Source: Candidatus Nanoarchaeia archaeon (GTDB lineage Archaea; Nanobdellota; Nanobdellia; Woesearchaeales; JANQNE01). Taken from it: DNA of 64,000 nucleotides. Of this stretch, positions 10,108 to 59,936 are shown piece after piece (the first letter of the stretch is position 1; each line of letters opens with the position of its first letter). The DNA lies in NCBI GenBank assembly GCA_028279725.1, contig JANQNE010000011.1:25872-89871 (forward strand), given 5' to 3'. A model generated the notes under the pieces. It had not been told where the DNA came from and ran no database searches. It was given only the letters and a program-made list of their open reading frames with translations. Position numbers and translations under genes: made by a program.

Positions 10108-10119
10108 ACAAAAACACCC

Positions 10120-11034: not shown

Positions 11035-11070
11035 GAAGAAGTTGTTATATTTAAATTATTAGATTCTCAA

Positions 11071-11163: not shown

Positions 11164-11171
11164 CTTTAGGA

Positions 11172-12866: not shown

Positions 12867-13211
12867 ATGGCTGCAAAACAAAAAATAATAGGGCTTACTG
12901 AAAAAGTACTGGTCTATGGCCAGAATAAAAAGAAAAATGTTGTCGCTAGGATAGATACTGGAGCGACAAAGTCTTCTATCGATGTAAAATTAGCTGCTGA
13001 GCTGCAGTTAGGTCCTATATACAGGACTAAATTAGTCAAGTCTACCCATGGTAATACATTAAGGCCTGTTGTTGAGATGAACATAAGACTTTCTGGGGTG
13101 GAATTAAGGTCAGATTTTACGATAGCTGACAGAACTGATATGAAATATCAGATATTGGTCGGCCAGAATATATTGAAAGAGGGAAATTTTTTGGTTAATC
13201 CTAAAAAATGA
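12867..13211 (+). CDS. RimK-associated retropepsin-like aspartic-protease-fold protein ('putative ATP-dependent zinc protease' family)
   Basis: DTGATKSSID (D-T/S-G-A) motif in a ~115-aa protein; its stop overlaps the start of the downstream RimK-like gene (ATGA), as in the conserved bacterial pair. Confidence 0.6.
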   Translation: MAAKQKIIGLTEKVLVYGQNKKKNVVARIDTGATKSSIDVKLAAELQLGPIYRTKLVKSTHGNTLRPVVEMNIRLSGVELRSDFTIADRTDMKYQILVGQNILKEGNFLVNPKK

Positions 13212-14311: not shown

Positions 14312-14342
14312 CTTTTTAAATAGAGAGTTCTTGTTTTGTCCT

Positions 14343-28169: not shown

Positions 28170-28738
28170 TATTTACACCTTATCACTCTTTTTTCGGTAA
28201 TTATCATATCCATCGGGATGTCATAATCTTCTGTTGGTATATTTTTTGTTATCTGTTCTTCAAATGCAAGCCCTATTTTTAGGGAGTTTCTGTCTTTCAG
28301 GAATCTGTCGTAAAAACCTTTTCCGAATCCTATCCTTGCTCCGCTTTGGTCAAAAGCGATGCCTGGGACGAGGACGATGTCCAGGTTTTCTTTGTATTCC
28401 TCTTTTTTGATTGGTTCGAGTACTCCGAAGTTCCCTTCTTTTAGGTCATTGAAGTCAGATAATTTTGATATCTTTATGTTGTTTTCTTCGACAAATGGGA
28501 TGATTACTGTCTTTTGCTGCAGTTGTTCTTTGATTAATTCTATTGTGTTTACCTCACTTTTTAGTGAAAGGTAAGACATCACTATGTTTGCTTTTTTGAA
28601 CTCATCCAGATCTTTTAGATGTTGGATGATTGTCTTGCTTTTTTCTGAGATCTGTTCTTCCGGTATGTTATCTCTTATGGACCTTATGGTGTTTCTGATC
28701 TCTTGTTTGTTTATTCTGTTCATAGTGCGATTCTTCAC
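28169..28738 (-). CDS. 5-formyltetrahydrofolate cyclo-ligase (MTHFS)
   Basis: GARIGFGKGFYDRF (GxGxGyYDR) family signature; 189 aa; overlaps neighbours on both sides. Confidence 0.75.
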   Translation of the reverse strand: MKNRTMNRINKQEIRNTIRSIRDNIPEEQISEKSKTIIQHLKDLDEFKKANIVMSYLSLKSEVNTIELIKEQLQQKTVIIPFVEENNIKISKLSDFNDLKEGNFGVLEPIKKEEYKENLDIVLVPGIAFDQSGARIGFGKGFYDRFLKDRNSLKIGLAFEEQITKNIPTEDYDIPMDMIITEKRVIRCK

Positions 28739-31404
28739 TTTTGCCTATCAAGCTCTTTTTTTGCAATATCTTTTCTAAAAAACATGCCGTCGAAGTTTAT
28801 GTCATTTATTTTTGTGTATGCTGTATCGACGGCATCTTTAAGGGTTGATCCTAATGTGATTACATTTAATACTCTTCCTCCATTTGTGAGGATCTTTCCG
28901 TTATCTTTCTTTGTTCCAGCGTGAATCACCTGTGCTCCACTTATGTTATCTAAACCTTTTATCTCTTTTCCCTTTTCATATGAACCAGGATAACCTCCTG
29001 ATGCTAGTACTATGCTTACGCAGTGTTTTTCAGACCAGTCTAGTTTCATAGCTCCTAGTTTCTTGTCTATTACTGCGTTCATTACGTCAAGTATATCATT
29101 GTTTAATCTTGGAAGGATAACCTGTGTTTCCGGATCTCCAAATCTGCAGTTGAATTCTAAGATCTTTAGGCCGTCTTTTGTTTTCATAAGTCCGACGTAG
29201 AGGACTCCTTTGTATTCTATGCCTTCTGCTTTTGTTCCAGCTATGAATGGCTTAATTATCTTTTCTTCCATCTCTTTTTCAAGTCCGTCTAATATTGGTG
29301 CTGGTGAGTAAGCTCCCATCCCTCCTGTATTAGGGCCTTTGTCTCCTTCATAGATTGGTTTGTGATCCTGTGAATATACCATTGGCTTGAATGTTTCTGA
29401 GTCTACGAAGACTAAGTAGGACCCTTCTTCACCTACAAGACATTCTTCTACAACTATTGATGAAGATGCATCTCCGAATTTGTTTGCTTTTAGGCATTCT
29501 TCTGCAAACTTTACTGCTTCTTCTACTGTGTTTGCGACAAGAACTCCTTTTCCAGCAGCTAGTCCGTCTGCTTTTACGACAATTGGTGCTCCCTGCTTTT
29601 CGATGTATGCTTTTGCTTTTTCAAAATCAGTGAATTCATCAAATTCAACTGTTGGAAGATTATATTTTTTCATGAATCTTCTTGCAAATGCTTTTGATCC
29701 TTCAAACTGTGATGCTTTTTTGTTAGGGCCGAAGACTCTTATCCCTGCTTTTTCAAGTTCGTCAGCTGCTCCGTTAACTAGCGGAGCTTCTGGACCTATG
29801 ATTGCAAGATCTATCTTCTTTTCTTTTGCAAACTTGACTAAAGCTTCATTATCATTTTGGTCGATATCATGACAGCAAGCTACCTGGCCAATACCTGGAT
29901 TTCCCGGGACTGCGTATAGTTTGTTTAATCTGTCAGATTCTGTGACTTTTAATGCAATAGCATGCTCTCTTCCGCCTGAACCAACTATCATTACGTTAAG
30001 TTTGGTGTCTAATGTTGTCTGCTCTTCTGTTCTCTGGCAACCAAGGCATTGCTGCTGTGATTCTGATACTGGTTCTGGGTATTCTCCTGTTAAACATGCC
30101 ATACATACATCCCTCCTTGTAGCATTCTTGATATTATCAACTGTTGCATATACTAAATTATCTGCTTCAAGATATTCTCTTATCTGTTCTATTGATTTAT
30201 CTGAAGCTATAAGCTCTTTTTTTGTCGCCATGTCTATCCCATAGAAGCATGGGAATTTTATAGGAGGACAAGCAGAAACAAATGTAACTTTTCTAACTCC
30301 TCCATCTTTTAATGTTCTTACTATCCTTTTTGATGTTGTTCCCCTTACAATGCTGTCATCAACTACAGCAACACTCTTGTTTTCAAGTATACTTATTACA
30401 GGCCTTAGTTTTCTTCTTACTGAGTCATGCCTTGTCTTTTGTGATGACATTATGAATGTTCTTTGTATATATTTATCTTTGATCAGACCTTCCCTATATT
30501 TTACAGCAAGATCTTCACTTAATTTTATAGCAGCTGTCCTTCCTGAATCTGGAACTGGGACTACAACATCGATGTCTTTTTGGTCCATCTGCTCGCTCAT
30601 CAGTTTTCCAAGAGCTAATCTTGTCTTGTATACTGATCTGTTCTCTATCATGCTGTTCGGGCTTGCAAAATATATCCATTCAAACATACAATGAGCTTTT
30701 TTCTCCTGTTTTAGGATCTTGCTTTCTATAACCAAGTCTTTTGAGATAAAAACAGCTTCTCCTGGCTCTATATCTCTGACATAATCATGATCAATAACCT
30801 GAAATGCTACAGTTTCTGAAGCAAATATGTATGAATCTCCTCTCTTTCCGAGAACTAAAGGCCTTATGCCTCTTGGATCTCTTATCGCGAATATACCTTT
30901 GTCTGCTATCATTCCAACAATTGAGTAAGCTCCTCTTACCTTATCCATGAAGTGCTTTGCAGCTGCAAAGAAATCTCCATGCTGTTCGTAATGCTCTGCG
31001 AATATTCTTAGAAGAACTTCACCGTCAACAGAGGTTTCAAGATGTTTTCCTTTTTTTTGGAATTCTTCTTTTAGGTCGAAGTAGTTTATTGTGTTTCCGT
31101 TCTGAGCCATAGCAACTTTTGGGTTGATCTTTGTTGTAAGAGGTTGTGCGTCGCACAACATTCCTTTTCCCTGTGTTGCATATCTTGTGTGGCCGATGCC
31201 CATCTTCCCTTGTAATAGGTTTGCGTCTCTTGCCTTGAATACTCTGTGAACAGCATCCATCTCTTTTTTTGTGAAGAATTCGTCTTTTACGTTTGTTACT
31301 ATGCCGCATGCATCCTGGCCTCTATGCTGCAATGACATCAAGCTAGTTACTGCATCCTCAAAAACTTCATCATCTTTTGAAACAATACCAATAATTCCGC
31401 ACAT
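28735..31404 (-). CDS. Fusion of amidophosphoribosyltransferase (PurF, Fe-S type) and phosphoribosylamine--glycine ligase (PurD)
   Basis: N-terminus MCGIIGIV (Ntn Cys1), PRTase VVDDSIVRGTTS, Fe-S ligand regions CMFEWIYFASP and CMACLTGEYP. After a short linker comes LNVMIVGSGGREHAIALKV (PurD start) and the ATP-grasp C-terminal half. 889 aa. Confidence 0.85.
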   Translation of the reverse strand: MCGIIGIVSKDDEVFEDAVTSLMSLQHRGQDACGIVTNVKDEFFTKKEMDAVHRVFKARDANLLQGKMGIGHTRYATQGKGMLCDAQPLTTKINPKVAMAQNGNTINYFDLKEEFQKKGKHLETSVDGEVLLRIFAEHYEQHGDFFAAAKHFMDKVRGAYSIVGMIADKGIFAIRDPRGIRPLVLGKRGDSYIFASETVAFQVIDHDYVRDIEPGEAVFISKDLVIESKILKQEKKAHCMFEWIYFASPNSMIENRSVYKTRLALGKLMSEQMDQKDIDVVVPVPDSGRTAAIKLSEDLAVKYREGLIKDKYIQRTFIMSSQKTRHDSVRRKLRPVISILENKSVAVVDDSIVRGTTSKRIVRTLKDGGVRKVTFVSACPPIKFPCFYGIDMATKKELIASDKSIEQIREYLEADNLVYATVDNIKNATRRDVCMACLTGEYPEPVSESQQQCLGCQRTEEQTTLDTKLNVMIVGSGGREHAIALKVTESDRLNKLYAVPGNPGIGQVACCHDIDQNDNEALVKFAKEKKIDLAIIGPEAPLVNGAADELEKAGIRVFGPNKKASQFEGSKAFARRFMKKYNLPTVEFDEFTDFEKAKAYIEKQGAPIVVKADGLAAGKGVLVANTVEEAVKFAEECLKANKFGDASSSIVVEECLVGEEGSYLVFVDSETFKPMVYSQDHKPIYEGDKGPNTGGMGAYSPAPILDGLEKEMEEKIIKPFIAGTKAEGIEYKGVLYVGLMKTKDGLKILEFNCRFGDPETQVILPRLNNDILDVMNAVIDKKLGAMKLDWSEKHCVSIVLASGGYPGSYEKGKEIKGLDNISGAQVIHAGTKKDNGKILTNGGRVLNVITLGSTLKDAVDTAYTKINDINFDGMFFRKDIAKKELDRQK

Positions 31405-31406
31405 TT

Positions 31407-32231
31407 TTATCTATCCTTAAAATAGTCAACAGCATTCTGGAAAATCCTGAAGTTTGAGCTAATTAAATCAGGGATCTCTTTGTTTTCTCTTTTAGCGATC
31501 TCTTTTTTCAGATGGAATTCCGGCTCGCTGATTGAGTATATTGCTCTTTCTGGATGAGGCATCATTCCCATTAGCCTTCCAGTCTTGTCGCAGATAGCTG
31601 CTATATCATTTAAAGCTCCATTAGGGTTGATAGGGTAAACATTTTCTGCATCATCTCCTGCTTCATTGCAGTACGTGAAAACTATCTGGTTGTTCTTTTT
31701 TAATTCTTCAAGTGTGTTTTTATCGCATGTGAATCTTCCTTCTCCATGAGCTATAGGGAGATGTGTCTGTTCTATTCCTTTTGTGAATATACAATTAGAA
31801 TTGTTGTTTTTTATGTTTACCCATAAGCATTCATATCTGTTGCTTGTGTTTGATTCTAATGAGCTGATTCTTTTTCCGTAGTCTCCATCTGTAGCGAATA
31901 ATCCTAAATGGGTCATGACCTGGAATCCGTTGCAGACTCCGAGTATCAATTTTCCTGAGTTTATGAACTCTAAAAGATCTTCCCAAAGGTTGTTTTTTAT
32001 CTTGTTTGCAAAAGCATTTCCTGAACCTGTGTCATCTCCATACGAGAATCCTCCTGGAAACATAATTATATTGTAGTCAGACATCTTTTTCTTTTTTGAG
32101 ATAAGGTCGTTTATGTGGACAATTTCGCATTCAGCTCCTGCTTTTTCAAAAGCATGAGCACTTTCTTTCTCGCAGTTGATCCCATATCCTGACATAATCA
32201 ATACTTTTGGTATCATATTAATAGTCCTCAA
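31407..32231 (-). CDS. purQ: FGAM synthase glutaminase subunit
   Basis: Class I GATase catalytic GVCNGFQ and HGEGRF; 274 aa; overlaps the purL stop. Confidence 0.85.
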   Translation of the reverse strand: MRTINMIPKVLIMSGYGINCEKESAHAFEKAGAECEIVHINDLISKKKKMSDYNIIMFPGGFSYGDDTGSGNAFANKIKNNLWEDLLEFINSGKLILGVCNGFQVMTHLGLFATDGDYGKRISSLESNTSNRYECLWVNIKNNNSNCIFTKGIEQTHLPIAHGEGRFTCDKNTLEELKKNNQIVFTYCNEAGDDAENVYPINPNGALNDIAAICDKTGRLMGMMPHPERAIYSISEPEFHLKKEIAKRENKEIPDLISSNFRIFQNAVDYFKDR

Positions 32232-35214
32232 ACCTTTTTTTGTATATTTTTTCTAATTTTTCAATGTCTGTCTTGATTACTTGTTCTTCTTTGTTGTTTA
32301 TTATGAACTCATTGTCTTCTTTTACTGTTCCTATCTTTGCTATGTCGAAGTCGCTCATTGCTTTTACAAATTCATCCTGGTCTTTAGGGTTGATCGTTAC
32401 GATGAATCTGGACTGTGATTCTGAATAGAATATCTTTTCTATTGGCAGGTTATCGTTTGGTGCTTTGCTTAAGTCTGTTTCCGCTCCAAGCTGTCCTGCG
32501 ATTGCCATCTTTGCTAATGTGATCAGTAGTCCGCCTTGATTGACTGGAGCACATGCACTGAACATTCCTTTTTTGTTTAACTGGAACATTGTTTCGTAAA
32601 GTTTTCTTGCTTTTTGTGCATCTACTTTTGGTGACTTTGCTCCGAACTTATCGAATGCTCTATAGAACTCGCTTCCACCACATTCGTCTTTCGTCATTCC
32701 TATGGTGTATATCAGATCTCCCGGAAGCTTGAAGTCCATCGTTATTGTATCTTTTGCATTGTCGATTATGCTTATGCTTGAGATCATCAATGTTGGAAGT
32801 ACTGAAATCTTTATTGAGTTATCTTTTTCGTCAAATCCTTTGAAATCGTTGAACATGCTGTCTTTTCCTGAGATAAATGGTGTTTTGTAGATGGTTGCAT
32901 AATCATAGCATGCTTGTGCTGCGTCTTTTAGCTGGCCCATACGTTCTGGCTCGTTTGAACTGCACCAGCAGAAGTTGTCCATGAGTGCAAGATGGTCTAT
33001 GTTTCCGCCGACAGCAACACAGTTTCTTATTGAAGTGTCTATAGCACATGCTGCCATATCATAGCAGTTTATCTCGCTTAGTCTTGGATAAAGGCATTGT
33101 GACATAACAGCTGCTTTATTGCTGCTGAACAAAGGCTTTACAACTGAAGCTGCTCCGTTGACTCTGCCTTTTCCCTGTAATGGTTTTATGACTGAGTTAT
33201 TCTGAACTTCATGATCATACTGTTTTGATATAAATTCAAAGCTGCAGTTGTTGTGATTTCCCAGGATCTTTTCGAACAGTGCTTTTTGGTTGTCTATTGT
33301 TATTTTTGGCTCTTCTGTCCTGTAAGGATAAGGTTTTGTGATAAGTTTTCTTTTTGGAAGTCCGTCATGTAAGAATTCCATGTCTAAGTTGAATATTTCT
33401 TTTCCGTTGAAATTCACTATAGCTTTTTTTGTGTCGTTGAAATTTCCAATTACTGTTGATTCAACTCCTCTGCTTTCCATAAGGTCCATGAATTCTTTTA
33501 GCTTGTTGTCTGGAACTGATAATGTCATACGTTCCTGTGATTCTGAAATCCATGTTTCCCAAGGCGGAAGTCCTGGATATTTTAGAGGAACTTTTTCTAA
33601 GTCTACTATGAAACCACCACATTCTCTTGCCATCTCTGCAACTGAACAGGATAATCCTCCTGCTCCATTGTCTGTTATGCTATTGTAAAGTTCTTTATCT
33701 CTTGCTTCTTTTACAATTGCATCCGAGAGTTTCTTTTGAGTGATCGGATCTCCTATCTGAACAGCTGTTGCTGGTGAGCCTTCATCCATCTCTTCTGATG
33801 AGAATGTTGCTCCGTGAATACCATCTTTTCCAACTCTTCCGCCGATCATGACAATGTTGTCTCCTGGCTGAGCCTGTTTGTCCTGGCTTGGATTTCCGTT
33901 AGGAAGTTTTCTTGGTAAAAGTCCTACAGTTCCTACGAATATGAGAGGTTTTCCCTTGTAGCAATCGTCGAAGTATACAAATCCTGTTGGTGTTGGAATA
34001 CCTGAGCAGTTTCCTCCTACATTTACTCCATGTATTACTCCATCCATGATCTTTCTTGGTGTTAAAGCTGGGTTTGTCTTGTTCTTTCCTCTGTAAATGA
34101 ATGTCTTGTCTTCTGGTCTTCCTAAGCAGAAGCCGTATTTGTTAACTATTGGAAGTGCGCCCATACCGAAGCCGATAGTGTCTCTGTTAACTCCTACAAT
34201 TCCAGTTATAGCTCCTCCAAATGGATCTAATGCTGAAGGACTATTATGTGTTTCAGCTTTGTCTGTGATCATCCAGTCGTCATTGAATATTATTCCTCCT
34301 GAATTGTCTTTGAATACTGATAAGCAGAAATCTTTATCTCCTAAGTCTTCTCTTACTTTTATTGTCGCTGCTTTGATGAACTTTTTGTATATTCCTTCTT
34401 TTATGTCATCTATCTCTCCTGCAAATAAAGTGTGTTTGCAGTGTTCTGACCATGTTTGTGCGATTGATTCCAGCTCAATATCAGTTGCTTTTCTTCCTTC
34501 TTTTTTGTAATAAGCCTGTATTGCGTGTAAGTAGTCTAAGTCTAAAGCTAAAGGGCCTCTTCTTGTGTTTGTTACAGGATCAGGAATTCCTTTTTTTCCA
34601 AGTTCTGTAAGAATTTCATCACTGACATTCAGATCAATTGCAATTACGTTTTGTTCTTCTTTTATGTTTACTTTTGGAACAATATAATCCATGCCGTTGT
34701 CTTCAGTGTATTGTTCTGCTGATTTGATGTGGAAACGTTCTATTAAAGTGTTGATTAGTTCTTTTGCAATTATTTCTATGTCTTCTTTCTTTAGGTTGTC
34801 TGATTTTATTAAGATCAGTTTAGAAGTGAATACTTTGTTTCTTCCAATGTTGATCTTGAATAGGTCGTTTATGATTTCTGTAGTTGTGTTTGCTACATTG
34901 TCTGTAACTCCTGGCAAGAATCCCAGTTCTAATGCCCAGCTAAACTCTTTTTTTGATGGTGAGTTGATCCTTGGAGTTTCTACGATAGGATTGTGTAATG
35001 CGTTAGCTATTGCTGTTATTTGTTCTGCTGAGAAATCATACTGGATAGTGTATACTTTGCTTACTTCAATAGAGGTTTCGAAGCCCAGCGAGAACAGCTT
35101 TTTCTCTAATATTTTGGCTTCAGAGCCCTTCTCCTTGGAATCTATAGAAATCCTAAATATCTGTCCATTTTCTTGCATGATCAACCCCCTATAGTTAGCT
35201 GAAAAATGACTCAT
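32218..35214 (-). CDS. purL: FGAM synthase II (PurL) with ~215-aa N-terminal PurS-like extension
   Basis: SEHCKH motif at ~aa 250 marks the canonical smPurL start, followed by PurM-like repeats. The upstream segment LGFLPGVTDNVANTTTEIINDL resembles the PurS core; no separate purS in the operon. 998 aa. Confidence 0.8.
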   Translation of the reverse strand: MSHFSANYRGLIMQENGQIFRISIDSKEKGSEAKILEKKLFSLGFETSIEVSKVYTIQYDFSAEQITAIANALHNPIVETPRINSPSKKEFSWALELGFLPGVTDNVANTTTEIINDLFKINIGRNKVFTSKLILIKSDNLKKEDIEIIAKELINTLIERFHIKSAEQYTEDNGMDYIVPKVNIKEEQNVIAIDLNVSDEILTELGKKGIPDPVTNTRRGPLALDLDYLHAIQAYYKKEGRKATDIELESIAQTWSEHCKHTLFAGEIDDIKEGIYKKFIKAATIKVREDLGDKDFCLSVFKDNSGGIIFNDDWMITDKAETHNSPSALDPFGGAITGIVGVNRDTIGFGMGALPIVNKYGFCLGRPEDKTFIYRGKNKTNPALTPRKIMDGVIHGVNVGGNCSGIPTPTGFVYFDDCYKGKPLIFVGTVGLLPRKLPNGNPSQDKQAQPGDNIVMIGGRVGKDGIHGATFSSEEMDEGSPATAVQIGDPITQKKLSDAIVKEARDKELYNSITDNGAGGLSCSVAEMARECGGFIVDLEKVPLKYPGLPPWETWISESQERMTLSVPDNKLKEFMDLMESRGVESTVIGNFNDTKKAIVNFNGKEIFNLDMEFLHDGLPKRKLITKPYPYRTEEPKITIDNQKALFEKILGNHNNCSFEFISKQYDHEVQNNSVIKPLQGKGRVNGAASVVKPLFSSNKAAVMSQCLYPRLSEINCYDMAACAIDTSIRNCVAVGGNIDHLALMDNFCWCSSNEPERMGQLKDAAQACYDYATIYKTPFISGKDSMFNDFKGFDEKDNSIKISVLPTLMISSISIIDNAKDTITMDFKLPGDLIYTIGMTKDECGGSEFYRAFDKFGAKSPKVDAQKARKLYETMFQLNKKGMFSACAPVNQGGLLITLAKMAIAGQLGAETDLSKAPNDNLPIEKIFYSESQSRFIVTINPKDQDEFVKAMSDFDIAKIGTVKEDNEFIINNKEEQVIKTDIEKLEKIYKKRFEDY

Positions 35215-35704: not shown

Positions 35705-35787
35705 AGAACAAAAGGATTACTAAGTTGTATATAAATATTATTGTTTTTGAGTATTCTAGAATGGTAACGTTACGTTAATCGTAAGAA

Positions 35788-38755: not shown

Positions 38756-38882
38756 ATTTATTTCACCTATGTACTTTATCTAAATCTTGCAGCGAGCTGC
38801 AATAACCTGCTATTTAAGAAGTTAGTATTTAAATATTGCGGAAAAAGTGCGTAGATTTATATAGGGAGCGCTTTTCTGGGAT

Positions 38883-40670
38883 TTGATGGCAAAATCTAAA
38901 AATATACTGTTTGTTTATCCAAAAACTCCTGAAACTACATACTGGAGCTATGAATATGCTATGCCATTCATAGATAAGAAAGCCACTATTTCTCCTTTAG
39001 GACCAATAACTGTTGCAGCTATGCTTCCAAAAGAGTATTCTGTCAAGCTTATCGATATGAATATTGAGGACCTTAAGGATGAAGATATAAAGAAGGCAGA
39101 TGCTGTCTTCACTTCAACTATGGTTGTTCAGAAGGATTCACTGGAAGAAGTTGTCAATCAGGTAAGAAGATTTGAAAAACCGATTGTTGCAGGAGGGCCT
39201 TTTCCCACACAATTCTATGATAAGATAGAAGGTATTGACCATTTTGTATTAGGGGAAGCGGAATCAGGAGCACTTGATGCTTTTATAAGAGATTTTGAGA
39301 ACGGCAATGCCAAGAAAGCGTATGCCAGGTTTGCTTTTAGAAAAAAAGGTGATGAAAAGGAGGCAGATGAAAGAGAATTTGAAGCACTGAAGAAATTTTT
39401 TGGAGAGAATTCAGATATACAAAAAGTAAGTTCAAGACCAGATATATCAAACAATCCTGTTCCCAGATTTGATCTTCTTAAAATGGATGAGTATGTCTCT
39501 ATTGCGATACAGTATTCCAGAGGATGTCCACATAGCTGTGATTTTTGCAGCGAATCTACATTATATGGTCATAAGATGAGATTAAAAGGATCAAAGAAGA
39601 TAATAAGTGAACTGAAAAAGATATATGATCTGGGATTTAGGGGATCTATATTTGTTGTAGATGATGATTTTATAGGCAATAAAAAACAGGTCAAGGAAGA
39701 TCTTGTAGATATAAAAAAGTTTCAGGAAGACAGAAGATATCCTTTTCCACTTTATACTGAAGCGACCATACTGCTTGCCAAAGATAAAGAACTGATGAGA
39801 AGGATGAGAGATGCTGGCTTCAATATGGTGTTTGTGGGTATAGAAACTCCGGATAAGGAAGTGTTGAAAGACATGGGCAAATCCCAGAATGTTAAGTCTG
39901 ATCTTCTGGAAGATGTTAAGGCTATCCAAAGATATGGTATGGAGGTCAGCGGAGGTTTTATCGTAGGAAATGATAATGATCCTCCTGACATATGTGATAA
40001 GGTCTTTGAGTTCTGTCAGGAAGCAGGGATCCCTACTGCAATGGTCGGATTATTAACTGCATTTAAGGGTTCTCCCCTATTGGACAGGCTGAAAGCAGAA
40101 GGAAGATTACGGAAGGATTCTGAAGGTGATAATACTCATTCTTTTGAACTTAATTTTAAGCCAGTTGAAGGAAAAAATGAAGCAAAGATAATCGGTGATT
40201 ACAAGACTCTTCTGAATAAACTTTATGACAGAACCGGGAAGAACTATTATGCAAGATGTTCTACATTATTAAATAACCTGGGATATAATCCAAAAGGTGC
40301 AAGAGATGTTAATGCCAATGAATTAAGGGCCCTTTTTAGATCAGCCAGAAGAAGTATGTTCAACCCAAACTATTCTAAGTTCATGGCTCATGCTCTTGTA
40401 AGGCATACAAGTGTTTTTCCTGAAGCTGTCAGGATGGCAATAATGGGATATCATCTAAGAAAGATCACTAAACTTTCCTTAAAGGCTGATGAGATAAGCG
40501 GAGTTCTAAAGATGTATGATAATATTGTTCATGAAGGCGGAGAGGTTATAGATTCTATAGGTAAAGTTTTATCTAAGATGAAAAGGAAGATTCAAAGGCT
40601 CCCTGAAGCTTACAGATCAAAGCCTAATGAAATTTACGGAAGAATAATGGAAAAAAATTCAAAAAGATAG
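38883..40670 (+). CDS. B12-binding radical SAM protein (class B rSAM, DUF4070-type C-terminus)
   Basis: N-terminal Rossmann-like B12-binding region; radical SAM cluster motif CPHSCDFC (CxxxCxxC); long helical C-terminal domain. 595 aa. Confidence 0.75.
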   Translation: MMAKSKNILFVYPKTPETTYWSYEYAMPFIDKKATISPLGPITVAAMLPKEYSVKLIDMNIEDLKDEDIKKADAVFTSTMVVQKDSLEEVVNQVRRFEKPIVAGGPFPTQFYDKIEGIDHFVLGEAESGALDAFIRDFENGNAKKAYARFAFRKKGDEKEADEREFEALKKFFGENSDIQKVSSRPDISNNPVPRFDLLKMDEYVSIAIQYSRGCPHSCDFCSESTLYGHKMRLKGSKKIISELKKIYDLGFRGSIFVVDDDFIGNKKQVKEDLVDIKKFQEDRRYPFPLYTEATILLAKDKELMRRMRDAGFNMVFVGIETPDKEVLKDMGKSQNVKSDLLEDVKAIQRYGMEVSGGFIVGNDNDPPDICDKVFEFCQEAGIPTAMVGLLTAFKGSPLLDRLKAEGRLRKDSEGDNTHSFELNFKPVEGKNEAKIIGDYKTLLNKLYDRTGKNYYARCSTLLNNLGYNPKGARDVNANELRALFRSARRSMFNPNYSKFMAHALVRHTSVFPEAVRMAIMGYHLRKITKLSLKADEISGVLKMYDNIVHEGGEVIDSIGKVLSKMKRKIQRLPEAYRSKPNEIYGRIMEKNSKR

Positions 40671-40702
40671 TTTTATATACAACCTGCTTACTAATTTTTG
40701 TC

Positions 40703-41737
40703 ATGGAAAAGAGGGATAAGCTGAGGAAATTAGTCGAGGGGAAGAAGGTTTTTCTTGCAACACACTGGGATGCTGATGGTGTTACATCTGGAGCGTTAGT
40801 GTATCATCTGATAAAGCCATTTGCAAAAGAGATCGAAACTGTCTCTAAAGGAGAGACTTTTTTGGTGAACAAAGAAGATGTTAAAGGAGATCCTGATGTT
40901 ATAATCTGTACAGATATAAAGCCTGGAGATATAGACCATAAGAAGACGATATATATCGATCATCACCCATGGGATAAAGATGGAGTTGAGGAGAACGAAT
41001 ATCTTTATTGCATCTTTGACAAAGATATGCAGTCATGCTCTTTGCTGATATGGCATGAGCTATTGCAGGACACTACAAATCCATATTACATTTTTCTGAC
41101 ATTAGTCGGTTATTTTGGAGATGGAGGAAACAGAGAAGAGATCCCTGTTGAGCTGCAGATGCTGGCTGATAAATATCTTAAGCATCAGACAAGTGTAGGT
41201 GTTCATGATCTAATGGAGAAGAAAAATTCAAGATTCAGTGAAGGCTATTATTATGAGATAGAAAGATATGTATCTGCACTAAATACAGGAAAGAGGATGC
41301 ACTGGAGCGGAGATATTCCGTTTGAGCTTCTGAAAAATATCAGCAGCTATAAGCCATATATCTATAAGATGCATCCGATAGCTCAGCAGCTTAATGATTA
41401 CAGATATCAATTAAGAAATCATTATGATATGCAGATAAAACTCTTTGATAAGAAGAAGATACAGTATGCGATGATAGAGTCTGATAAAAATATACAAGGA
41501 GTTCTTTGTGCAAGATATCTCAAAGATAAGCCGATAATTGTCCTGAACAAAAGGAATGGAAGTATCATAGCTAGCATGAGAGTTCCTGATGATGTTGAAT
41601 TTGATGCTGGAGAATTTCTTGGACAGCTTAACGGAAAGATACCTTCTTTAGTTGGAGGAGGTCATGAGAAGGCTGCTGGTGTCACATTAAAAGAAGAAGA
41701 TCTGGATAAATTCTTGGATTTTTTAGATAATAGCTGA
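40703..41737 (+). CDS. DHH-family phosphoesterase (DHH + DHHA1; NrnA/RecJ-like)
   Basis: DHH motif YIDHHPWD, upstream Asp-rich motifs (HWDADGV) and DHHA1 GGGHEKAAG near the C-terminus; 344 aa. Confidence 0.6.
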   Translation: MEKRDKLRKLVEGKKVFLATHWDADGVTSGALVYHLIKPFAKEIETVSKGETFLVNKEDVKGDPDVIICTDIKPGDIDHKKTIYIDHHPWDKDGVEENEYLYCIFDKDMQSCSLLIWHELLQDTTNPYYIFLTLVGYFGDGGNREEIPVELQMLADKYLKHQTSVGVHDLMEKKNSRFSEGYYYEIERYVSALNTGKRMHWSGDIPFELLKNISSYKPYIYKMHPIAQQLNDYRYQLRNHYDMQIKLFDKKKIQYAMIESDKNIQGVLCARYLKDKPIIVLNKRNGSIIASMRVPDDVEFDAGEFLGQLNGKIPSLVGGGHEKAAGVTLKEEDLDKFLDFLDNS

Positions 41738-41909
41738 TCAAGATATTGGGTTAATCATTTCTAAGTATACAACATATTGTATTATGCAATTCTGGATTTT
41801 ATATAAATTATATATAAACTACTCAGGAGTAGCAATAAAAACGAAACTTTTATAAATGGTTGGAGCCTTATAGAGCTTGATTTAGCTAGTTTGGGGTATA
41901 AACTGAAAA

Positions 41910-44900
41910 ATGAAGGATTTAAGCAGATATCTAGATAAATTTAGAGGCGATTCTGTTAGGTTAGATAGACCTAGCCTTGATGATGATATCCGGACTATAG
42001 TATTCAATTATGAGCCTTTTGTTCTTGATTGGAAAAATTTTAGGAAACTGGAAAGAGATACTGAAAGAGAAGCAGAAGAAGTCTATAAGCAAAGAGCTCT
42101 GAATGGAGACACCTATACTGATATTGAAAAACAGTTTAAAGATGACCCAAAAGGAAGATATGATGCTACGAAAGATAGAGACTGGGTTGAAGGAAAGGTA
42201 AAAGCGTTCAGGCCGGAGATAAAAAGAGCTCTTGAGAGCAAATCAATAATAGGTATTAGACCTGACCAGGAAGATCTTGAGTCTATCTGTATGGATAGGA
42301 ACATCACTTTAGTTGGAAAAGAAGTTGTAGGTATTAATTCTGAATTTATGGTGGGAAATGACATCATACTTTTGGAGACCGAAGTATATGAAAAGGTCTG
42401 TGAGAGGCTAAAAGAAAGCGATGATAAATCAAAAGAGAATGCAGTAGCTACAATCAAGGAAGTTATTGAAGAAGAACTTACTAAAGAGAAACCAAAACTG
42501 CTGATAGTTGATAATGAAATGGGAGAAAGATTGAGGATGACTGAAATAGCTCTAAAATGCGGGTTTAGCACTCGAATAGCTGAAAATCCAGAACAGGCAT
42601 TTCAGATGCTTGAAAAAGAAAAAGACATTGGTACGATAATAACAGGTGATATATTTCCTGGAACTAATGGGCTTGATTTCATAATGGAGCTTAGAAAGAG
42701 AGGAGGAGAACAGCATGCAATACTTGTATCAGATGAGCAGTTCATAGAAAAGGAATATGAAGGAAAAAACCATAAAGAACTGCTTCAGGCAAATGTGAGA
42801 GTTATTGAGAAAGGAGGAAATACAGATCCAGAGATAAGAAGTGAATTTCTTAATGCTAAAGGTAAGATGGATCTTATGGCTGAGAAGACAGATGTACGTA
42901 TAGAGGAGAAAGATTCAAAGATACCAACCTTTGCAGATTTTGAGAATAAGATAAGAGATTACAACAGCAATTCTGGAAAGCTTATAATGCTTGATTCGAA
43001 TGATATCAATGAAGTTATTACATCATTCAAGAGCAAGTTTAAAACACCCGAAGATTATATCACACTTTCAACTTTGAATAATGAAGATATGAAATACATA
43101 TTGACTGTTCCACGTATACTTAAGATTGAAGAGAATGGTGTGGAAGATAAAGCTATCGACCATATGATGGATGTTTTGGATCCTGAGGAAAGAAATCTAG
43201 GAAATGTTCTTGGAAAATTCTATGAAAAGATAAAAGAAGGATGGACTGGAGAAGATGTACAGGAGCTGCTTCGTTCAATCCTACGAAAAGAAGATGTAGG
43301 AGAATCTATCAAGAGTATTTACAGAAATAGAAAGGGTATGGATGATGAAGTAGTCATTGAAAGGAATATGAGAGAAGGTTCTGATTTTAGAACTTCTATA
43401 TTTTTCAGCTATAAGAATGCAGGAAGAGTGGCTGAAAGATACAATCATTATAGTGAGGATAAAAGGATAAAGTATAATCTTGGAATTACAACAGAAAGAG
43501 TAAGCTGGGTTGCAAAGAACAATGCACTGCTTGCCAGGTATCTTGAGATGTTTGGTGCTGCAAAAGGGAAAGTTGAACATGACAGTCTTGTCAATATAAT
43601 AAATCAGGACAGAAAGGATGATGTTGTGAGCATCAAGGAATCAAAGATTACAGTAGATTCAAAATATCATGTTTACGAAGTTACATCAACTTATGGAGAA
43701 AATGAAAAAAGACACAGCATAGTAAAATTCATAACTAATCCAGATTCATTTGAAAGGGAAGTCTATAACTATAATTATTTCAAGAGATTTGACGGAATAA
43801 ATGATGCGAATAGTCTGGTAACTACAACAGTGGAGGATGAAGAAGGAAACAAGAATTATGTTGTTGTACTTAATTTTAAGGAAGGAGTGGAGCCTAGACA
43901 GAATCTTATGACTACTTTTGAAAATATAAGAGAGAGTATCAAGACAGGAGGAGATGATGTTAAGAAAGAGCTTAATGATAAGGCAAATAAAGTAGGGATA
44001 CAGGCTATGTCTGATGTAGGAAGAGTACATGGTGTTGCTCCTGAACTAAAAGGAGATACATACACTTCATTCTATGGTGATTTTAAAAAATACCTTCATT
44101 TCAGGATAGGAGAGTTCCAAGATAATCTTACTGACCTTGTAAAACAGCTTGCTACTGAATTTAAAGATCATATACAAAAGAACTCATCAAGAGTTAAATC
44201 AAACTCTTATTCACTTGTTGAATATCTAGCAAGCATGGATACAACTTTCTATAAGGATACTGTAACAAAGAACATGACTCCTATGGGGGAGGAAGGAGGG
44301 AAGAACTCAGGCAGGTTTGCATCAGTTGATTATGGAGAAGTCAGAAAACTTCCACTGACTTTTGATGTTGCAAATGCAGTACATACTATGTACATACCTG
44401 ATATCAGGGTTGCTGAGGAAGATGGAACAATAGATCAGATGCTGATATCCTATCTTAGTGGATATTGTGAAGGAAGAACATCGTACAATAATGAAGTTAT
44501 GAAGAAGAAAAATGTAAAAAAATATCTTGTAGATAATCTTGAAAGGATGAGAAAAGGGACAGGAAATGAAAGTGTAAGGGAGAATCTATCTGATCTTCTT
44601 AAGATAATAAAGAAGGAAGAGCCAAAACATAAGAGCAGGAAAAAGAAGATGGCATTTTATAAGGATATCATGTCTGGATTTGCTGAGTCAAGCGGATCAG
44701 ATGAGTTAAAAAGAGTTGTAGCGAATGAGATCAAATATTTTGATGAAATAGAAGATAAACCTGACCCATATTTTGGGAAGCTTAAGATCAGGACAAGCAC
44801 TGCGAAAGGAAGAAGAAACAAAAGATATGAGATCATAAGCGATAAATTAAAAGGACCAAGAGATAGGTGGTCAACTAAATTGAATGATGCGTTCGAAAGA

Positions 44901-45212
44901 TTCAAAGCAGATTTCTATGTAAGTATGGCATACAGAGGACAGGTTATAGCAAATACTGTTCCAGTCTATATATTATCAGATCATAATATCAACAAGCAGA
45001 GGAGGGATTATTTTTCATCTGTTATGGGAAATACTACTCAAGCATTAGAGATACTTAGTGAGAAATATATCGGAAAAGAAAAAGGAATGTACTTAAGGAG
45101 AGAGCTAGATGGCGATAAGCTTAATGAAGTTAAGAATGCACTTTCAGATATCAGGAATATATTTGAAAAGATAGATCCGGGGGCTGTTAAGAATGCCGAA
45201 TACAAAGCTTGA
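41910..45212 (+). CDS. Large (1100-aa) multidomain protein with an embedded CheY-like receiver domain; remainder of unknown function
   Basis: Receiver-like segment KLLIVDNE...TGDIFPGTNGLDFIMELRK...HAILVSD...IEKG fits the REC pattern (acidic pocket, DxxxPxxNGxxF, S/T, K). The flanking ~400-aa N-terminal and ~600-aa C-terminal regions have no assignable motifs. Confidence 0.55.
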   Translation: MKDLSRYLDKFRGDSVRLDRPSLDDDIRTIVFNYEPFVLDWKNFRKLERDTEREAEEVYKQRALNGDTYTDIEKQFKDDPKGRYDATKDRDWVEGKVKAFRPEIKRALESKSIIGIRPDQEDLESICMDRNITLVGKEVVGINSEFMVGNDIILLETEVYEKVCERLKESDDKSKENAVATIKEVIEEELTKEKPKLLIVDNEMGERLRMTEIALKCGFSTRIAENPEQAFQMLEKEKDIGTIITGDIFPGTNGLDFIMELRKRGGEQHAILVSDEQFIEKEYEGKNHKELLQANVRVIEKGGNTDPEIRSEFLNAKGKMDLMAEKTDVRIEEKDSKIPTFADFENKIRDYNSNSGKLIMLDSNDINEVITSFKSKFKTPEDYITLSTLNNEDMKYILTVPRILKIEENGVEDKAIDHMMDVLDPEERNLGNVLGKFYEKIKEGWTGEDVQELLRSILRKEDVGESIKSIYRNRKGMDDEVVIERNMREGSDFRTSIFFSYKNAGRVAERYNHYSEDKRIKYNLGITTERVSWVAKNNALLARYLEMFGAAKGKVEHDSLVNIINQDRKDDVVSIKESKITVDSKYHVYEVTSTYGENEKRHSIVKFITNPDSFEREVYNYNYFKRFDGINDANSLVTTTVEDEEGNKNYVVVLNFKEGVEPRQNLMTTFENIRESIKTGGDDVKKELNDKANKVGIQAMSDVGRVHGVAPELKGDTYTSFYGDFKKYLHFRIGEFQDNLTDLVKQLATEFKDHIQKNSSRVKSNSYSLVEYLASMDTTFYKDTVTKNMTPMGEEGGKNSGRFASVDYGEVRKLPLTFDVANAVHTMYIPDIRVAEEDGTIDQMLISYLSGYCEGRTSYNNEVMKKKNVKKYLVDNLERMRKGTGNESVRENLSDLLKIIKKEEPKHKSRKKKMAFYKDIMSGFAESSGSDELKRVVANEIKYFDEIEDKPDPYFGKLKIRTSTAKGRRNKRYEIISDKLKGPRDRWSTKLNDAFERFKADFYVSMAYRGQVIANTVPVYILSDHNINKQRRDYFSSVMGNTTQALEILSEKYIGKEKGMYLRRELDGDKLNEVKNALSDIRNIFEKIDPGAVKNAEYKA

Positions 45213-46617
45213 TAGTCCCAGTATAGATCTTCACCTGCACAGCGGTTTTTCTGTCGATAATGAAAATATCTCTCCTGAGGAATGGGCTGAATTTATCTAT
45301 AAAGTAAAGGAGAGCAGGCTTCCTGGACTGAAAGGGATAGCCTTGACTGACCATAACAACATGGTAGGAGTTGAGCCTAATCTTGATGCACTTAGAAAGC
45401 TAGAGAGAAGGAAAGGAGTTGAGCCTTTAGAGTTTATCCCCGGTGTTGAATGCGCTCTTGAGCATGAGAATGTTTCTGCACATATAATTGCTTATTTTGT
45501 ACCTGGCGAAAATGAGAAGATAGAAGATGCACTGCACAGGGCAACGCAGATAAATCCGCTTCTTGAGATAATCAATACTGAATTTACGAGAAGAAAATAC
45601 GGAGTTCTTGCTCTGGAGACAGCTAATGCACATATGAGAAATAAGCTAGGAGATGCTTTTGAACACCCTATCACTATAAAAGAGATGGATGCTGTGATGA
45701 GAGAAGAGCTTCCTGTTTATGAGCTTGACAACTGGATATTCAAGCCAACCTATGAAGATGGAAGTATGACAAAGAACAGGATAACTGAGCTTAACCACAG
45801 GCAGCTTGAGAAGCTTCTTTGCGGGAATCATGAATCAGGAGATATAAAAAGGAATTGGGTAGATCCAAAAGAGGCTGAGATATTGGTAAAAAGAGGAGGA
45901 GTACTCTATCCTGAAAATTTTCCAGGCTACAGTGTACTCAAAGGGATAGAGCAGATACATGAAGCAGGAGCTTTTGCAAGCTTTGCGCATCCTCAGCTTA
46001 CAATAAGGAGCCTTTGTGAAAAAAAATTAGGAAATAAGATAAAAGATGAAGGAGTTAAAGGTGGTTTGAAGCTTGATAGGGTAAAAGATATACAGATTAA
46101 GTATTCAGCTCTGGATGAGACTCTTGTAGAGTTCCAGGATTTTTTAGAGAAAGAGATGATACCAAGAGGGCTGAATGCTATCGAGCTGACAAACCATTAT
46201 TCATATCTTATGGCTGAGTTTGCATATATGACTATAAGTCTTTTGATGTTTGTTGATAATTATAACAGAAGAAATCCTAACAACAGGCTGTATGTAACTG
46301 GAGGATCTGATTTTCATAAGCCGGTAGGAAACAGAAACATAGGAACAGTAAACACAATGTGTGAGAAAGGTGTCCAGCAGCTTATCGAGATATACAGCAA
46401 GATGGACAGCGGCAGCAGGCCAAGATTTGATGAAGGGACAATAAAACAGCTTCATGAGATAATCATGACAGGAACAAGAGATATCTATACAACAGATAAC
46501 AGTGCAAATGAGTTCACCAGAGTCATACCTTACTATCAGCTAACAAGGATGAAAGAGGCAGAAAAAGATCCAAAATCAGGACTTTATCTGCTTCCAGGTT
46601 CAGTCAAGAGTGAGTGA
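45193..46617 (+). CDS. PHP-family metal-dependent phosphoesterase
   Basis: PHP motifs IDLHLHSGFSVD, ALTDHNNM, ECALEH, SFAHPQ, GGSDFHKP; start overlaps the upstream giant gene by 20 nt; 474 aa with a C-terminal extension. Confidence 0.7.
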   Translation: MPNTKLDSPSIDLHLHSGFSVDNENISPEEWAEFIYKVKESRLPGLKGIALTDHNNMVGVEPNLDALRKLERRKGVEPLEFIPGVECALEHENVSAHIIAYFVPGENEKIEDALHRATQINPLLEIINTEFTRRKYGVLALETANAHMRNKLGDAFEHPITIKEMDAVMREELPVYELDNWIFKPTYEDGSMTKNRITELNHRQLEKLLCGNHESGDIKRNWVDPKEAEILVKRGGVLYPENFPGYSVLKGIEQIHEAGAFASFAHPQLTIRSLCEKKLGNKIKDEGVKGGLKLDRVKDIQIKYSALDETLVEFQDFLEKEMIPRGLNAIELTNHYSYLMAEFAYMTISLLMFVDNYNRRNPNNRLYVTGGSDFHKPVGNRNIGTVNTMCEKGVQQLIEIYSKMDSGSRPRFDEGTIKQLHEIIMTGTRDIYTTDNSANEFTRVIPYYQLTRMKEAEKDPKSGLYLLPGSVKSE

Positions 46618-47523
46618 GATCGTCGATCCCAGCACATCATTTATCCTTTGGGCGATATTTCCAAGATATTCAAGAAGGACTATCTCTTTATCGTTCTTGT
46701 TCTTGTACAGGTCTCTTATCTTTTTTTCTACTTTCTGCCTTACTTCATTTATAGCGACTAACTTATCTTTGTCTCCGCTGTAGAATGCTTTGTAGAATTC
46801 AGAGAACATTCCGTTAACATCATTGTATAGAGTAACTGCTTCTTTGCTTATCTTTGTCTTTGCATCTGCATTTTTTGACAAGAATTCTGCAAGATGGTAG
46901 TATTCATCTCCTATACTTTCGATAGACCAGACGATCACATACATGAATGTTGTCTTCTTATAATCTTTGAAGCCTTTTGTGTTAAGGATCCTTTCACAGA
47001 AGTTTGTAAGCTTGTTAACTGTTACCTCTAAAACTTTTATATCTTTTAGTTTTTCAAAATTATTATTTTTTATAGCTTCAAAGCTGCTTTCAGCCATAGA
47101 CTGTATGACCAAAAATACTCTTCTTAATGTAGGGTCAAATTCGCTTTCAAGATCCTGTGATAAGTTTCTGACTAGGCATCTGTTTCCAGACTGCTCTATG
47201 ATCGCATAGCCCATAAGACCTTCCTGGATAGTTGACTGGATTATCTCCAATATCTTAGGATCTGTGAATTTTATCTCAACTTCGTCGTAGCCGCTTTTAT
47301 GGACAGCGAACAATGACCATCTTACTAAGTGAGGATTTAGGTTAGAAACATCTAATGAGATCTTTTTCATCTCGATCCCTTTTGGAGTTGTGATAGTAAG
47401 ATTACTTCCTTCTTCCTTTATATCTAGCTCATCTCCTTTCTTTATGTTGTGTTTTTGAGCCCATTTTCTAGGCAAGGATACTAGCTGTGTACTGTCTGCG
47501 ATCTGTATAACTTTTCTTTTCAT
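46600..47523 (-). CDS. PhoU-like regulator with N-terminal AbrB/SpoVT swapped-hairpin domain (archaeal type)
   Basis: N-terminus VIQIADSTQLVSLPRKWAQKHNIKKGDELDI is AbrB-like; two helical PhoU-like repeats follow; 307 aa. Confidence 0.5.
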   Translation of the reverse strand: MKRKVIQIADSTQLVSLPRKWAQKHNIKKGDELDIKEEGSNLTITTPKGIEMKKISLDVSNLNPHLVRWSLFAVHKSGYDEVEIKFTDPKILEIIQSTIQEGLMGYAIIEQSGNRCLVRNLSQDLESEFDPTLRRVFLVIQSMAESSFEAIKNNNFEKLKDIKVLEVTVNKLTNFCERILNTKGFKDYKKTTFMYVIVWSIESIGDEYYHLAEFLSKNADAKTKISKEAVTLYNDVNGMFSEFYKAFYSGDKDKLVAINEVRQKVEKKIRDLYKNKNDKEIVLLEYLGNIAQRINDVLGSTISLTLD

Positions 47524-47676: not shown

Positions 47677-47826
47677 ATGGAGATACCTGATGACTGGAAT
47701 GAAGAAAATGAAGATACCATCTATTCAGAGGATGGAAGAGAAAGTTTAGTAGATAGTGAAGCTATGACACCAGAAGAAGCTGCATTTATGCAGGGTTATA
47801 GTGAAGCTGAAGAAGAGCTTGAATAA
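47677..47826 (+). CDS. Small acidic protein (49 aa), member of a 4-gene tandem paralog family (not in ORF track)
   Basis: MEIPDDWNEENEDTIYSEDGRESLVDSEAMTPEEAAFMQGYSEAEEELE; RBS aaggaggg 6 nt upstream; shares YSEDGRE..D...M..EEA.FMQGY with the next ORF. Confidence 0.5.
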   Translation: MEIPDDWNEENEDTIYSEDGRESLVDSEAMTPEEAAFMQGYSEAEEELE

Positions 47827-47942: not shown

Positions 47943-48092
47943 ATGAAAATAATAAAATCAAATTGGATAGATGAGTTAGAGGGTGAGAACTTAAGCGTTT
48001 ATTCTGAAGACGGCAGAGATATGCTTGTAGACGATGATGAGATGACATTAGAGGAAGCTGGCTTTATGCAAGGCTGGGATGAAGCAGGTTAA
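47943..48092 (+). CDS. Small acidic protein (49 aa), paralog 2
   Basis: MKIIKSNWIDELEGENLSVYSEDGRDMLVDDDEMTLEEAGFMQGWDEAG; RBS ggggtgggg upstream. Confidence 0.5.
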   Translation: MKIIKSNWIDELEGENLSVYSEDGRDMLVDDDEMTLEEAGFMQGWDEAG

Positions 48093-48585: not shown

Positions 48586-48759
48586 ATGAGAGATGATTAT
48601 AAGGAAGAGATTGAGGAAGAGAATGTATATAGTGAAGGCGGTAGAGAGAGCAATCTAGATGATGATGAGATATCGGGCAGTGAAGAAGCATTTATGCGTG
48701 GATATGATGATGCTGAAGAGTATGATGACGGAGATTACTCTGAAAGCGAAGAAGAATAA
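48586..48759 (+). CDS. Small acidic protein (57 aa), paralog 4
   Basis: MRDDYKEEIEEENVYSEGGRESNLDDDEISGSEEAFMRGYDDAEEYDDGDYSESEEE; same YSE(D/G)GRE...EEAFM(Q/R)GY core as ORFs 1 and 2; RBS cagagggtg upstream. Confidence 0.5.
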   Translation: MRDDYKEEIEEENVYSEGGRESNLDDDEISGSEEAFMRGYDDAEEYDDGDYSESEEE

Positions 48760-59834: not shown

Positions 59835-59936
59835 GGGCCTATAGTCTAATGGATAGAACAACCGGCTTCGGTAAGTGGGGTCAAAAGCTTCGCTTGTGGG
59901 TACCGGTTAGTGGGGGTTCGAATCCTCCTAGGCCCA
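59835..59936 (+). tRNA. tRNA-Arg (anticodon TCG) with a 30-nt intron at the canonical 37/38 position
   Basis: Acceptor GGGCCTA/TAGGCCC, T-arm GGGGG-TTCGAAT-CCTCC, anticodon stem ACCGG/CCGGT, loop C-T-TCG-G with U33 and G37. A 30-nt insert TAAGTGGGGTCAAAAGCTTCGCTTGTGGGT lies between G37 and A38. CCA is not encoded. Confidence 0.8.

Follow-up and report, generated by a model that had tools for sequence, protein, structure and literature searches.

A predicted kinase-like protein family encoded beside a PHP phosphoesterase and an AbrB-PhoU regulator in a nanoarchaeal contig

Genes of the locus and their conserved neighbourhood

The DNA analysed here is a 64,000-nucleotide stretch from a Candidatus Nanoarchaeia archaeon (assembly GCA_028279725.1, contig JANQNE010000011.1, positions 25,872 to 89,871), referred to below as the window. 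Our subject is a run of four plus-strand genes encoding a B12-binding radical S-adenosylmethionine enzyme (rSAM), a DHH/DHHA1 phosphoesterase (DHH), a giant protein containing a receiver (REC) domain and a phosphoesterase of the PHP family (PHP), met on the opposite strand by a gene for an AbrB(SpoVT)-PhoU regulator (Table 1). An initial annotation had located the four open reading frames (ORFs) accurately and named their domains correctly, with Pfam agreeing in each case, although the receiver scores below threshold. The 172-nt spacer and the 20-nt overlap that it gave were likewise confirmed, but its first spacer measures 32 nt rather than 33. It had also read the four genes as one possible module. 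The functional unit is most likely a different one, composed of the C-terminal module of the giant protein, PHP and AbrB-PhoU.

The giant ORF is a real gene and not a chance one, because it runs for 1100 codons in DNA of 36% GC and has remote homologues. These were sought by a full HMMER scan of 1.84 billion representative proteins. Besides receiver-domain matches to aa ~190-290, seven homologues were recovered (P0004-P0011), all aligning with aa ~396-1100; none of them carries a REC domain and, fragments apart, they are free-standing proteins 690-810 aa long. Because the homologues match this portion alone, the giant protein is resolved into an orphan N-terminus, a REC domain, a linker and a C-terminal module that we term family X. 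In word-indexed homology searches neither the giant protein nor the family-X alignment retrieved anything beyond the query, and exact-sequence contig look-ups for the giant and PHP of the window gave no match.

Loci bearing relatives of X (L001 to L014) were gathered from genome and metagenome scans with a C-terminal X sub-alignment and from contig look-ups. In all six archaeal lineages with long enough contigs, X is followed by PHP and then by a convergent AbrB-PhoU gene. These lineages are the window itself, L004/L005 (Logan DRR203540 / DRR204260), L001 = L008 = L009 (uncultured Methanosarcinales metagenome-assembled genome (MAG) GCA_964510025.1), L010/L011/L012, L013 and L014 (the last three from JGI). 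The X/PHP junction lies within 0-20 nt in the window, L004/5, L001/8/9, L010/11, L013 and L014. In the relatives the second gene of the triad encodes a protein of 420-460 aa and the third, convergent gene one of ~305 aa. The PHP orthologue is 49% identical to that of the window in L004 and 30% in L001 (E 4e-34); it was found after X by tblastn in L010 and L013 and through a precomputed Pfam PHP match in L014. Thus, the coupling of the giant to PHP proposed by the initial annotation is real: the genes overlap, and the PHP orthologue directly follows X in other lineages.

AbrB-PhoU orthologues occupy the same place in L001/L008, L004/L005, L010/L011 and L014, their identities to the window gene being, in descending order, 72%, 50%, 48% and 48%; a partial copy is present in L013. 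Of three paralogues in L008, the one adjoining PHP is closest to the window gene (47.5%), the two others nearby reaching 32% and 27%. Gene order and orientation are therefore the same in independent lineages whose outer flanks differ: DHH on one side and small ORFs, B3_4 and Arg-tRNA synthetase (ArgRS) on the other in the window, a small protein U and eIF2γ in L008 and L010, and a LeuA-like gene and a pyridine-nucleotide oxidoreductase in L014. The persistence of the triad across this divergence, with changing flanks, argues for a functional link between the three genes rather than residual synteny. A scan of viral contigs was empty, and literature searches for PHP together with a kinase and PhoU returned nothing relevant.

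Two further observations were made at the related loci. Protein U (147-189 aa) is encoded directly upstream of X in five lineages and has no family match; it is not present in the window or in L014. On the 4-kb contig L006, where no X gene is visible, a more distant PHP protein of 502 aa (P0043) adjoins an AbrB-PhoU-like gene whose product is 28% identical to that of the window, a second hint of a link between PHP and AbrB-PhoU.

Table 1. Features of the window and of related loci discussed in the text. Coordinates refer to the window unless a locus is named.
Feature	Coordinates	Strand	Evidence or remark
Giant protein, 1100 aa	41910..45212	+	Pfam: Response_reg alone, below cut-off
Giant, N-terminal region, aa 1-190	41910..42479	+	orphan, mostly helical; HMMER and AF2
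Giant, REC domain, aa ~195-300	42492..42809	+	Pfam PF00072, PDB phmmer, AF2, Foldseek
Giant, PAS_10 match in linker, aa 340-389	42927-43076		E 0.014, below cut-off
Giant, family-X module, aa ~396-1100	43095..45209	+	helical N-subdomain, kinase-like core, helical C-subdomain
Predicted kinase-core catalytic residues	43725..44330	+	K606 (β3), E617 (αC), D783 and N788 (FYKDTVTKN), D807 (SVDYGE)
PHP phosphoesterase, 474 aa	45193..46617	+	Pfam PHP; overlaps 3' end of giant gene by 20 nt
AbrB(SpoVT)-PhoU regulator	46600..47523	-	Pfam MazE_antitoxin/AbrB and PhoU; convergent with PHP, 18-nt overlap
Candidate promoter elements of giant-PHP unit	41798..41856	+	AT-rich TTTATATA at 41798-41805; TTTTATAAA at 41848-41856
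Three tandem small acidic ORFs	47677-47826, 47943-48092, 48586-48759	+	49, 49 and 57 aa; divergent from AbrB-PhoU
rSAM	38886..40670	+	Pfam B12-binding, Radical_SAM, DUF4070
TTTATATA box of rSAM	38856-38863	+	upstream of ATG
DHH/DHHA1 phosphoesterase, 344 aa	40703..41737	+	Pfam DHH and DHHA1
TTTATATA box of DHH	40672-40679	+	24-31 nt before ATG
Further copies of TTTATATA (examples)	735-742; 35728-35735	second copy -	motif often ends ~23-24 nt before a start codon
Small acidic ORF in Methanosarcinales MAG	L008:12367-12489		40 aa
Protein U	L001:7462-7965; L002:2348-2830; L010:195-641; L013:424-864; L003:5199-5765		no family match
PHP protein P0043	L006:2341-3849	+	502 aa
AbrB-PhoU-like gene	L006:897-1865	-	adjoins P0043
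Fused or long purine-cluster genes	14331-16424, 23283-24782, 28735-31404, 32218-35214		three fusions and PurL
D-Ala-D-Ala-ligase-like cluster	8301-14311		two LPG_synthase_C/FemAB-like genes, GNAT
RimK-like ATP-grasp gene	13208-14311		near ligase-like cluster
DapF	2422-3240		near ligase-like cluster
tRNA, 102 nt	59835-59936	+	Rfam 51.6 bits

Family X, its PHP partner and the receiver-bearing giant protein

The initial annotation had found nothing recognisable in the C-terminal region of the giant protein, and at the level of sequence families this holds, with no Pfam or NCBIfam model capturing X. The region nevertheless models as a kinase of the APH/choline-kinase-like type. An AlphaFold2 (AF2) model built on an alignment of eight sequences (mean predicted local distance difference test (pLDDT) 70, predicted template modelling (TM) score 0.61) shows a predicted bilobal kinase fold, its core at aa ~570-860, and a Foldseek search of the model placed choline kinases on top, at E-values that are not significant (0.03 or worse). 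A possible kinase signature can also be read in the sequence itself (VVK, EV.EY, Y.D.VTKN and VD[YR][GC]). The motifs fall where the fold requires them: K606 in β3, E617 in αC, D783 and N788 after a short strand and D807 ~20 residues further on. Among the X sequences covering each position these residues are invariant (K 6/6, E 6/6, D 8/8, N 8/8 and D 8/8), in a family whose pairwise identity is 14-42%. Thus, X carries the predicted catalytic residues of APH/choline-kinase-like kinases, with the exception of the loop histidine. The best-conserved motif of the family, ADxYVSMxYRxxxIANTVPxY (aa ~1000-1020), lies in the helical C-subdomain. Because sequence-only methods miss the kinase relationship, X is a new family at the sequence level, and its kinase fold is predicted rather than proven.

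PHP belongs to its superfamily on two grounds, a Pfam match above the gathering cut-off (PF02811, 32.1 bits against 26.4) and the HxH, H, E, H, H, DxH pattern of metal ligands. Residues H14, H16, H54, E86, H97, H266, D373 and H375 are invariant in six lineages; D12 is also listed among the invariant residues of metal-ligand type. The best NCBIfam matches, all far below cut-off, are the TrlF N-terminus, 3',5'-nucleoside bisphosphate phosphatase and RNase RNM, and where the equivalog models demand 375 and 400 bits PHP reaches 30.5 and 33.2, respectively, in alignments limited to its N-terminal ~110 aa. The best PDB matches are 3e0f and 7ug9. The protein additionally possesses an insertion of ~150 aa and a C-terminal extension of ~90 aa ending in a semi-conserved GLYLLP tail.

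For the CheY-like receiver core described in the initial annotation, the fold is supported over its β1-β4 part. The Response_reg model (PF00072) matched aa 198-276 with E 3.4e-5 and 24.4 bits, below the gathering cut-off of 30.2, over profile positions 2-79 of 111, and a phmmer search of PDB sequences with the giant protein returned receiver domains only, Spo0F and HupR among them. In the AF2 model the β1-α1-β2-α2-β3-α3-β4 portion is confident (pLDDT 85-97), and among the Foldseek PDB matches listed 50/50 are receiver-domain structures (three being REC-like entries or fusions). TM scores normalised to the target are ~0.6, and the top match reaches E 6e-5 at a probability of 1.00. The pocket lysine, by contrast, is a tentative assignment, because the α4-β5-α5 part is of low confidence (pLDDT ~50, modelled as helices) and the Lys of 'VIEKGG' is not alignable. 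A Ser is present in 'AILVSD'. The acidic pair is D201-N202, D-N rather than D-D, and, by comparison with 11 aligned receivers, the putative acceptor Asp ('TGDIFPG') is displaced by one residue towards the P-G motif. In view of the sub-cut-off score, the D-N pair, the shifted Asp and the unmodelled β5, the domain may be either a functional receiver or a pseudo-receiver.

The preceding region, aa 1-190, has no homologue among the 1.84 billion representatives, and most of residues 1-145 are modelled at pLDDT <50. Comparison of this N-terminus with protein U of the relatives was negative by both BLASTP and hhalign. Within the linker between REC and X, a sub-cut-off PAS_10 match falls in a region where the AF2 model is again of low confidence.

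Proposed function and alternative readings

On balance, we favour a reading in which X and PHP work as a couple, kinase and phosphoesterase, and are linked to a PhoU-type regulator, with receiver control added in this genome only. X would belong, though highly diverged, to the APH/choline-kinase-like branch of the protein-kinase-like (PKL) fold with its active site intact, and would transfer a phosphate from ATP to a hydroxyl group of its substrate. A small molecule, a nucleotide-like metabolite or a peptide would be a likelier substrate than a folded protein, because all structural neighbours of X are kinases of small molecules or peptides; the curated enzymes closest to PHP, pAp phosphatase and RNase AM/RNM, point in turn to a small and possibly nucleotide-like compound. 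PHP, with its complete metal site, may act on the same substrate or on its product, performing the opposing or the next step. AbrB-PhoU is a likely transcriptional or phosphate-linked regulator of the couple, or else its target. In this genome alone X appears to have gained an N-terminal extension with a receiver, through which a histidine kinase encoded elsewhere would switch the kinase; this fits a known pattern, since receivers fused to enzymes have been described.

Several points weigh against this reading. The kinase assignment derives from one AF2 model on a shallow alignment of eight sequences, in which the loop around the DFG-like Asp falls at pLDDT <50, and the Foldseek E-values are as given above. 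The histidine of the HxDxxxxN loop is replaced by Tyr or another residue in family X. Pfam returned no kinase-family model for any of the eight X members at E up to 5, a profile search of the PDB with X gave no kinase match, and an hhalign comparison with NPTII was negative. PHP fits no curated subfamily, scoring 30-40 bits against cut-offs of 350-400. Since AbrB-PhoU proteins form a multi-paralogue family, their adjacency could be partly inherited gene order; there are six lineages in all, two of them close to each other, and the neighbourhood of X gives no clue to a substrate. The receiver may be a pseudo-receiver on the grounds given above, and no histidine kinase gene was seen within the 64 kb.

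The strongest alternative, which we nonetheless consider unlikely, makes X a protein kinase that PHP opposes as the cognate protein phosphatase, with AbrB-PhoU or small acidic proteins encoded nearby as the target. PHP-type phosphatases of the CpsB/YwqE kind oppose bacterial tyrosine (BY) kinases in Gram-positive bacteria, and the CpsD-CpsB and YwqD-YwqE pairs resemble the present one in that a kinase gene is kept beside a gene for a PHP-family phosphoesterase. The kinase-like fold of X with its intact site and the constant adjacency of PHP and AbrB-PhoU agree with such a role. So do the three tandem paralogous ORFs that occupy an apparently 'empty' 1.4-kb stretch beyond AbrB-PhoU: they share the motif YSExGRE...EAxFM(Q/R)GY, and the Methanosarcinales MAG has a member with 54-66% identity in the corresponding position, so that proteins with an invariant Tyr-Ser adjoin AbrB-PhoU in two distant lineages. 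These ORFs, for which neither Pfam nor NCBIfam gave a match and the literature search with their motif returned nothing relevant, are possibly associated with the triad. L010 and L014, however, showed no member of this family, and the strong structural neighbours of X are small-molecule or peptide kinases, not protein kinases. Furthermore, BY-kinases are P-loop proteins whereas X is predicted to have the PKL fold, and PHP is nearest to nucleotide phosphoesterases; CpsB-type enzymes are ~250 aa long, belong to bacterial capsule loci and are not among its matches.

A more specific version of the favoured couple, to which we attach a somewhat smaller chance again, would make X and PHP the maker and breaker of a phosphorylated, second-messenger-like metabolite that is read by AbrB-PhoU and whose level is set, in this lineage, by two-component input through the fused receiver. 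If true, the kinase family, itself undescribed, would be the basis of a new signalling circuit in archaea. Slightly more doubtful still is the possibility that X is no enzyme at all, being a scaffold, a pseudokinase or a modelling artefact, and that the giant protein is a response regulator of the protein-interaction type. The failure of sequence searches to link X with any kinase family, the shallow alignment and the moderate confidence of the model are consistent with it, as is the statement in the archaeal census that most response regulators of archaea signal by protein-protein interaction (PMC5847659).

The initial annotation itself had envisaged rSAM, DHH, the giant and PHP as one four-gene module serving defence or cyclic-nucleotide signalling. 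The genes are indeed co-directional with short spacers, two phosphoesterases do stand beside a large, poorly annotated protein, and DHH and PHP are weakly like pAp phosphatase or nanoRNase-type enzymes. Part of the idea, that of an uncharacterised signalling-type unit, is reasonable, but the conserved partners of the giant are PHP and AbrB-PhoU, the latter lying outside the block that the initial annotation had drawn. A tblastn search with rSAM and DHH found no homologue at E up to 0.01 on the 14 related loci (the contigs of the closest relative, L004/L005, being too short to show the region upstream of X), so that the four genes are not co-conserved in relatives. rSAM, whose listed start is a TTG at 38883 and whose true start is probably the ATG immediately after it at 38886, reaches 80 bits against a cut-off of 600 in its best match to curated subfamilies. 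DHH gives weak RecJ-like matches and, in the PDB, weak matches to GAN and a DHH-type PAP phosphatase (8a8k, E 0.01).

Both genes also appear to have promoters of their own. A TTTATATA box ends 23-24 nt before the ATG of rSAM and of DHH, and at least two other genes of the window have it at the same distance. With 21 copies in the window where 5.3 would be expected, the motif is enriched four-fold, and most copies lie upstream of genes; their frequent spacing of ~23-24 nt from a start codon suggests that they are TATA boxes of leaderless transcripts. Between DHH and the giant, the 172-nt spacer contains TTTATATA and TTTTATAAA, TATA-like elements that are a candidate promoter of the giant-PHP pair. 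From the boxes of rSAM and DHH and the elements in this spacer we infer three transcription units, namely rSAM, DHH and giant-PHP. We judge rSAM and DHH to be neighbours and not members of the module, and the four-gene operon was rejected on the absence of the two genes from related loci and their promoter-like boxes.

Nothing points to a role of the locus in phage defence. PADLOC-DB 2.0 gave no match for DHH, the giant or PHP, and for rSAM a single weak match to 70 residues of the radical-SAM core (E 1.6e-4). GC content is uniform across the window (0.35-0.39), no mobile-element or defence gene was seen within its 64 kb, and no nucleotide cyclase or effector is present. The surroundings are mostly housekeeping: a very large purine-biosynthesis cluster (purF-purD, purL, purB, a purM-like gene, purC-purE, purN, folD, purH, IMPDH, purA and guaA), pyrBI, Lys-, Arg- and Pro-tRNA synthetases, the first (LysRS) of class I, and a diphthamide synthase. 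The defence or cyclic-nucleotide module is thus largely refuted and very improbable. Equally remote is a locus for ribosomally synthesised and post-translationally modified peptides (RiPPs), in which the B12-rSAM and a LxmK- or corramycin-kinase-like enzyme would modify the small acidic peptides; this was rejected because rSAM is not conserved with X and L010 and L014 are without the small ORFs, while lyase, cyclase, protease and exporter are absent and the small proteins, highly acidic and 54-66% identical across very distant archaea, are unlike hypervariable RiPP cores.

Other features of the window were recorded in passing. The purine cluster is of the folate type, with folD, purN and purH present, and includes unusual fusions of an Asn-synthase-like domain with diphthamide synthase (697 aa), of SAICAR synthetase with AIR carboxylase (499 aa) and of PurF with PurD (889 aa), as well as a long PurL (998 aa). 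A D-Ala-D-Ala-ligase-like gene is grouped with two LPG_synthase_C/FemAB-like genes and a GNAT gene, a cluster unusual for an archaeon, near a RimK-like ATP-grasp gene and DapF; it may represent a peptide-ligation or cell-wall-type pathway. Rfam detects a tRNA of 102 nt that ARAGORN does not report; it presumably has an intron, a sign of archaeal origin that agrees with the class-I LysRS and the diphthamide synthase. Ten window proteins, including three of the four at the locus together with IMPDH, PurA, GuaA, PyrB and LysRS, were found in a collection of ~15 billion proteins, each as a singleton at 90% identity, and the source organism is therefore without a close sequenced relative in that collection.

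Relation to known systems

For most archaeal response regulators no output can be recognised, and how archaea regulate genes in connection with phosphate or PhoU is poorly understood. Against this background the locus defines a rare kinase-like family that Pfam and NCBIfam do not capture, with PHP as its strictly conserved partner and a gene of the PhoU type as its neighbour. X and PHP offer a concrete enzyme pair for testing, and the tempting reading as a defence module is corrected here as unsupported.

TrpH/YciV-type PHP proteins, whose activities are described as RNase AM 5'-3' exoribonuclease or diribonuclease and 3',5'-nucleoside bisphosphate phosphatase (PMC7261194, PMC11528712, PMC9410882), are the best PDB and NCBIfam matches of the window PHP and have the full His/Asp/Glu ligand set in common with it. 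The window protein differs in scoring 10-fold below the family cut-offs, in its insertion and C-terminal extension and in its coupling to a kinase-like gene.

Response regulators in which REC is fused to an enzyme have been described as a trend among archaea (PMC5847659, section vii), and the pattern of a REC fusion together with a stand-alone module is reported there for several archaeal output domains. The giant protein resembles them in that its receiver is N-terminal to an enzyme-like module and in that the X module also stands alone in relatives. It is set apart by the 190-aa orphan region before the REC domain, by the sub-cut-off score of that domain and by its atypical acidic pocket and C-terminal part. 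In the main text of the same census, a search by term found output domains described neither as kinase-like nor as phosphotransferase or APH.

Compared with APH/choline-kinase-like kinases (corramycin phosphotransferase 8agy, APH 3csv, choline kinase 6yxs, homoserine kinase II 2ppq and NahK 4ocj), X has no detectable sequence similarity, carries Tyr in place of the loop His and is twice the size, with a helical N-subdomain of ~170 aa and a helical C-subdomain of ~240 aa, the latter holding the strongest motif of the family; in addition, its gene is always paired with a PHP gene. PKL-fold kinases, PHP esterases and REC-enzyme response regulators are all known types, and the system is in that sense not categorically new. 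For the X family, its obligate PHP partner and the linkage to AbrB-PhoU, no matching curated model or paper was found, and one natural REC fusion ties family X to two-component signalling.

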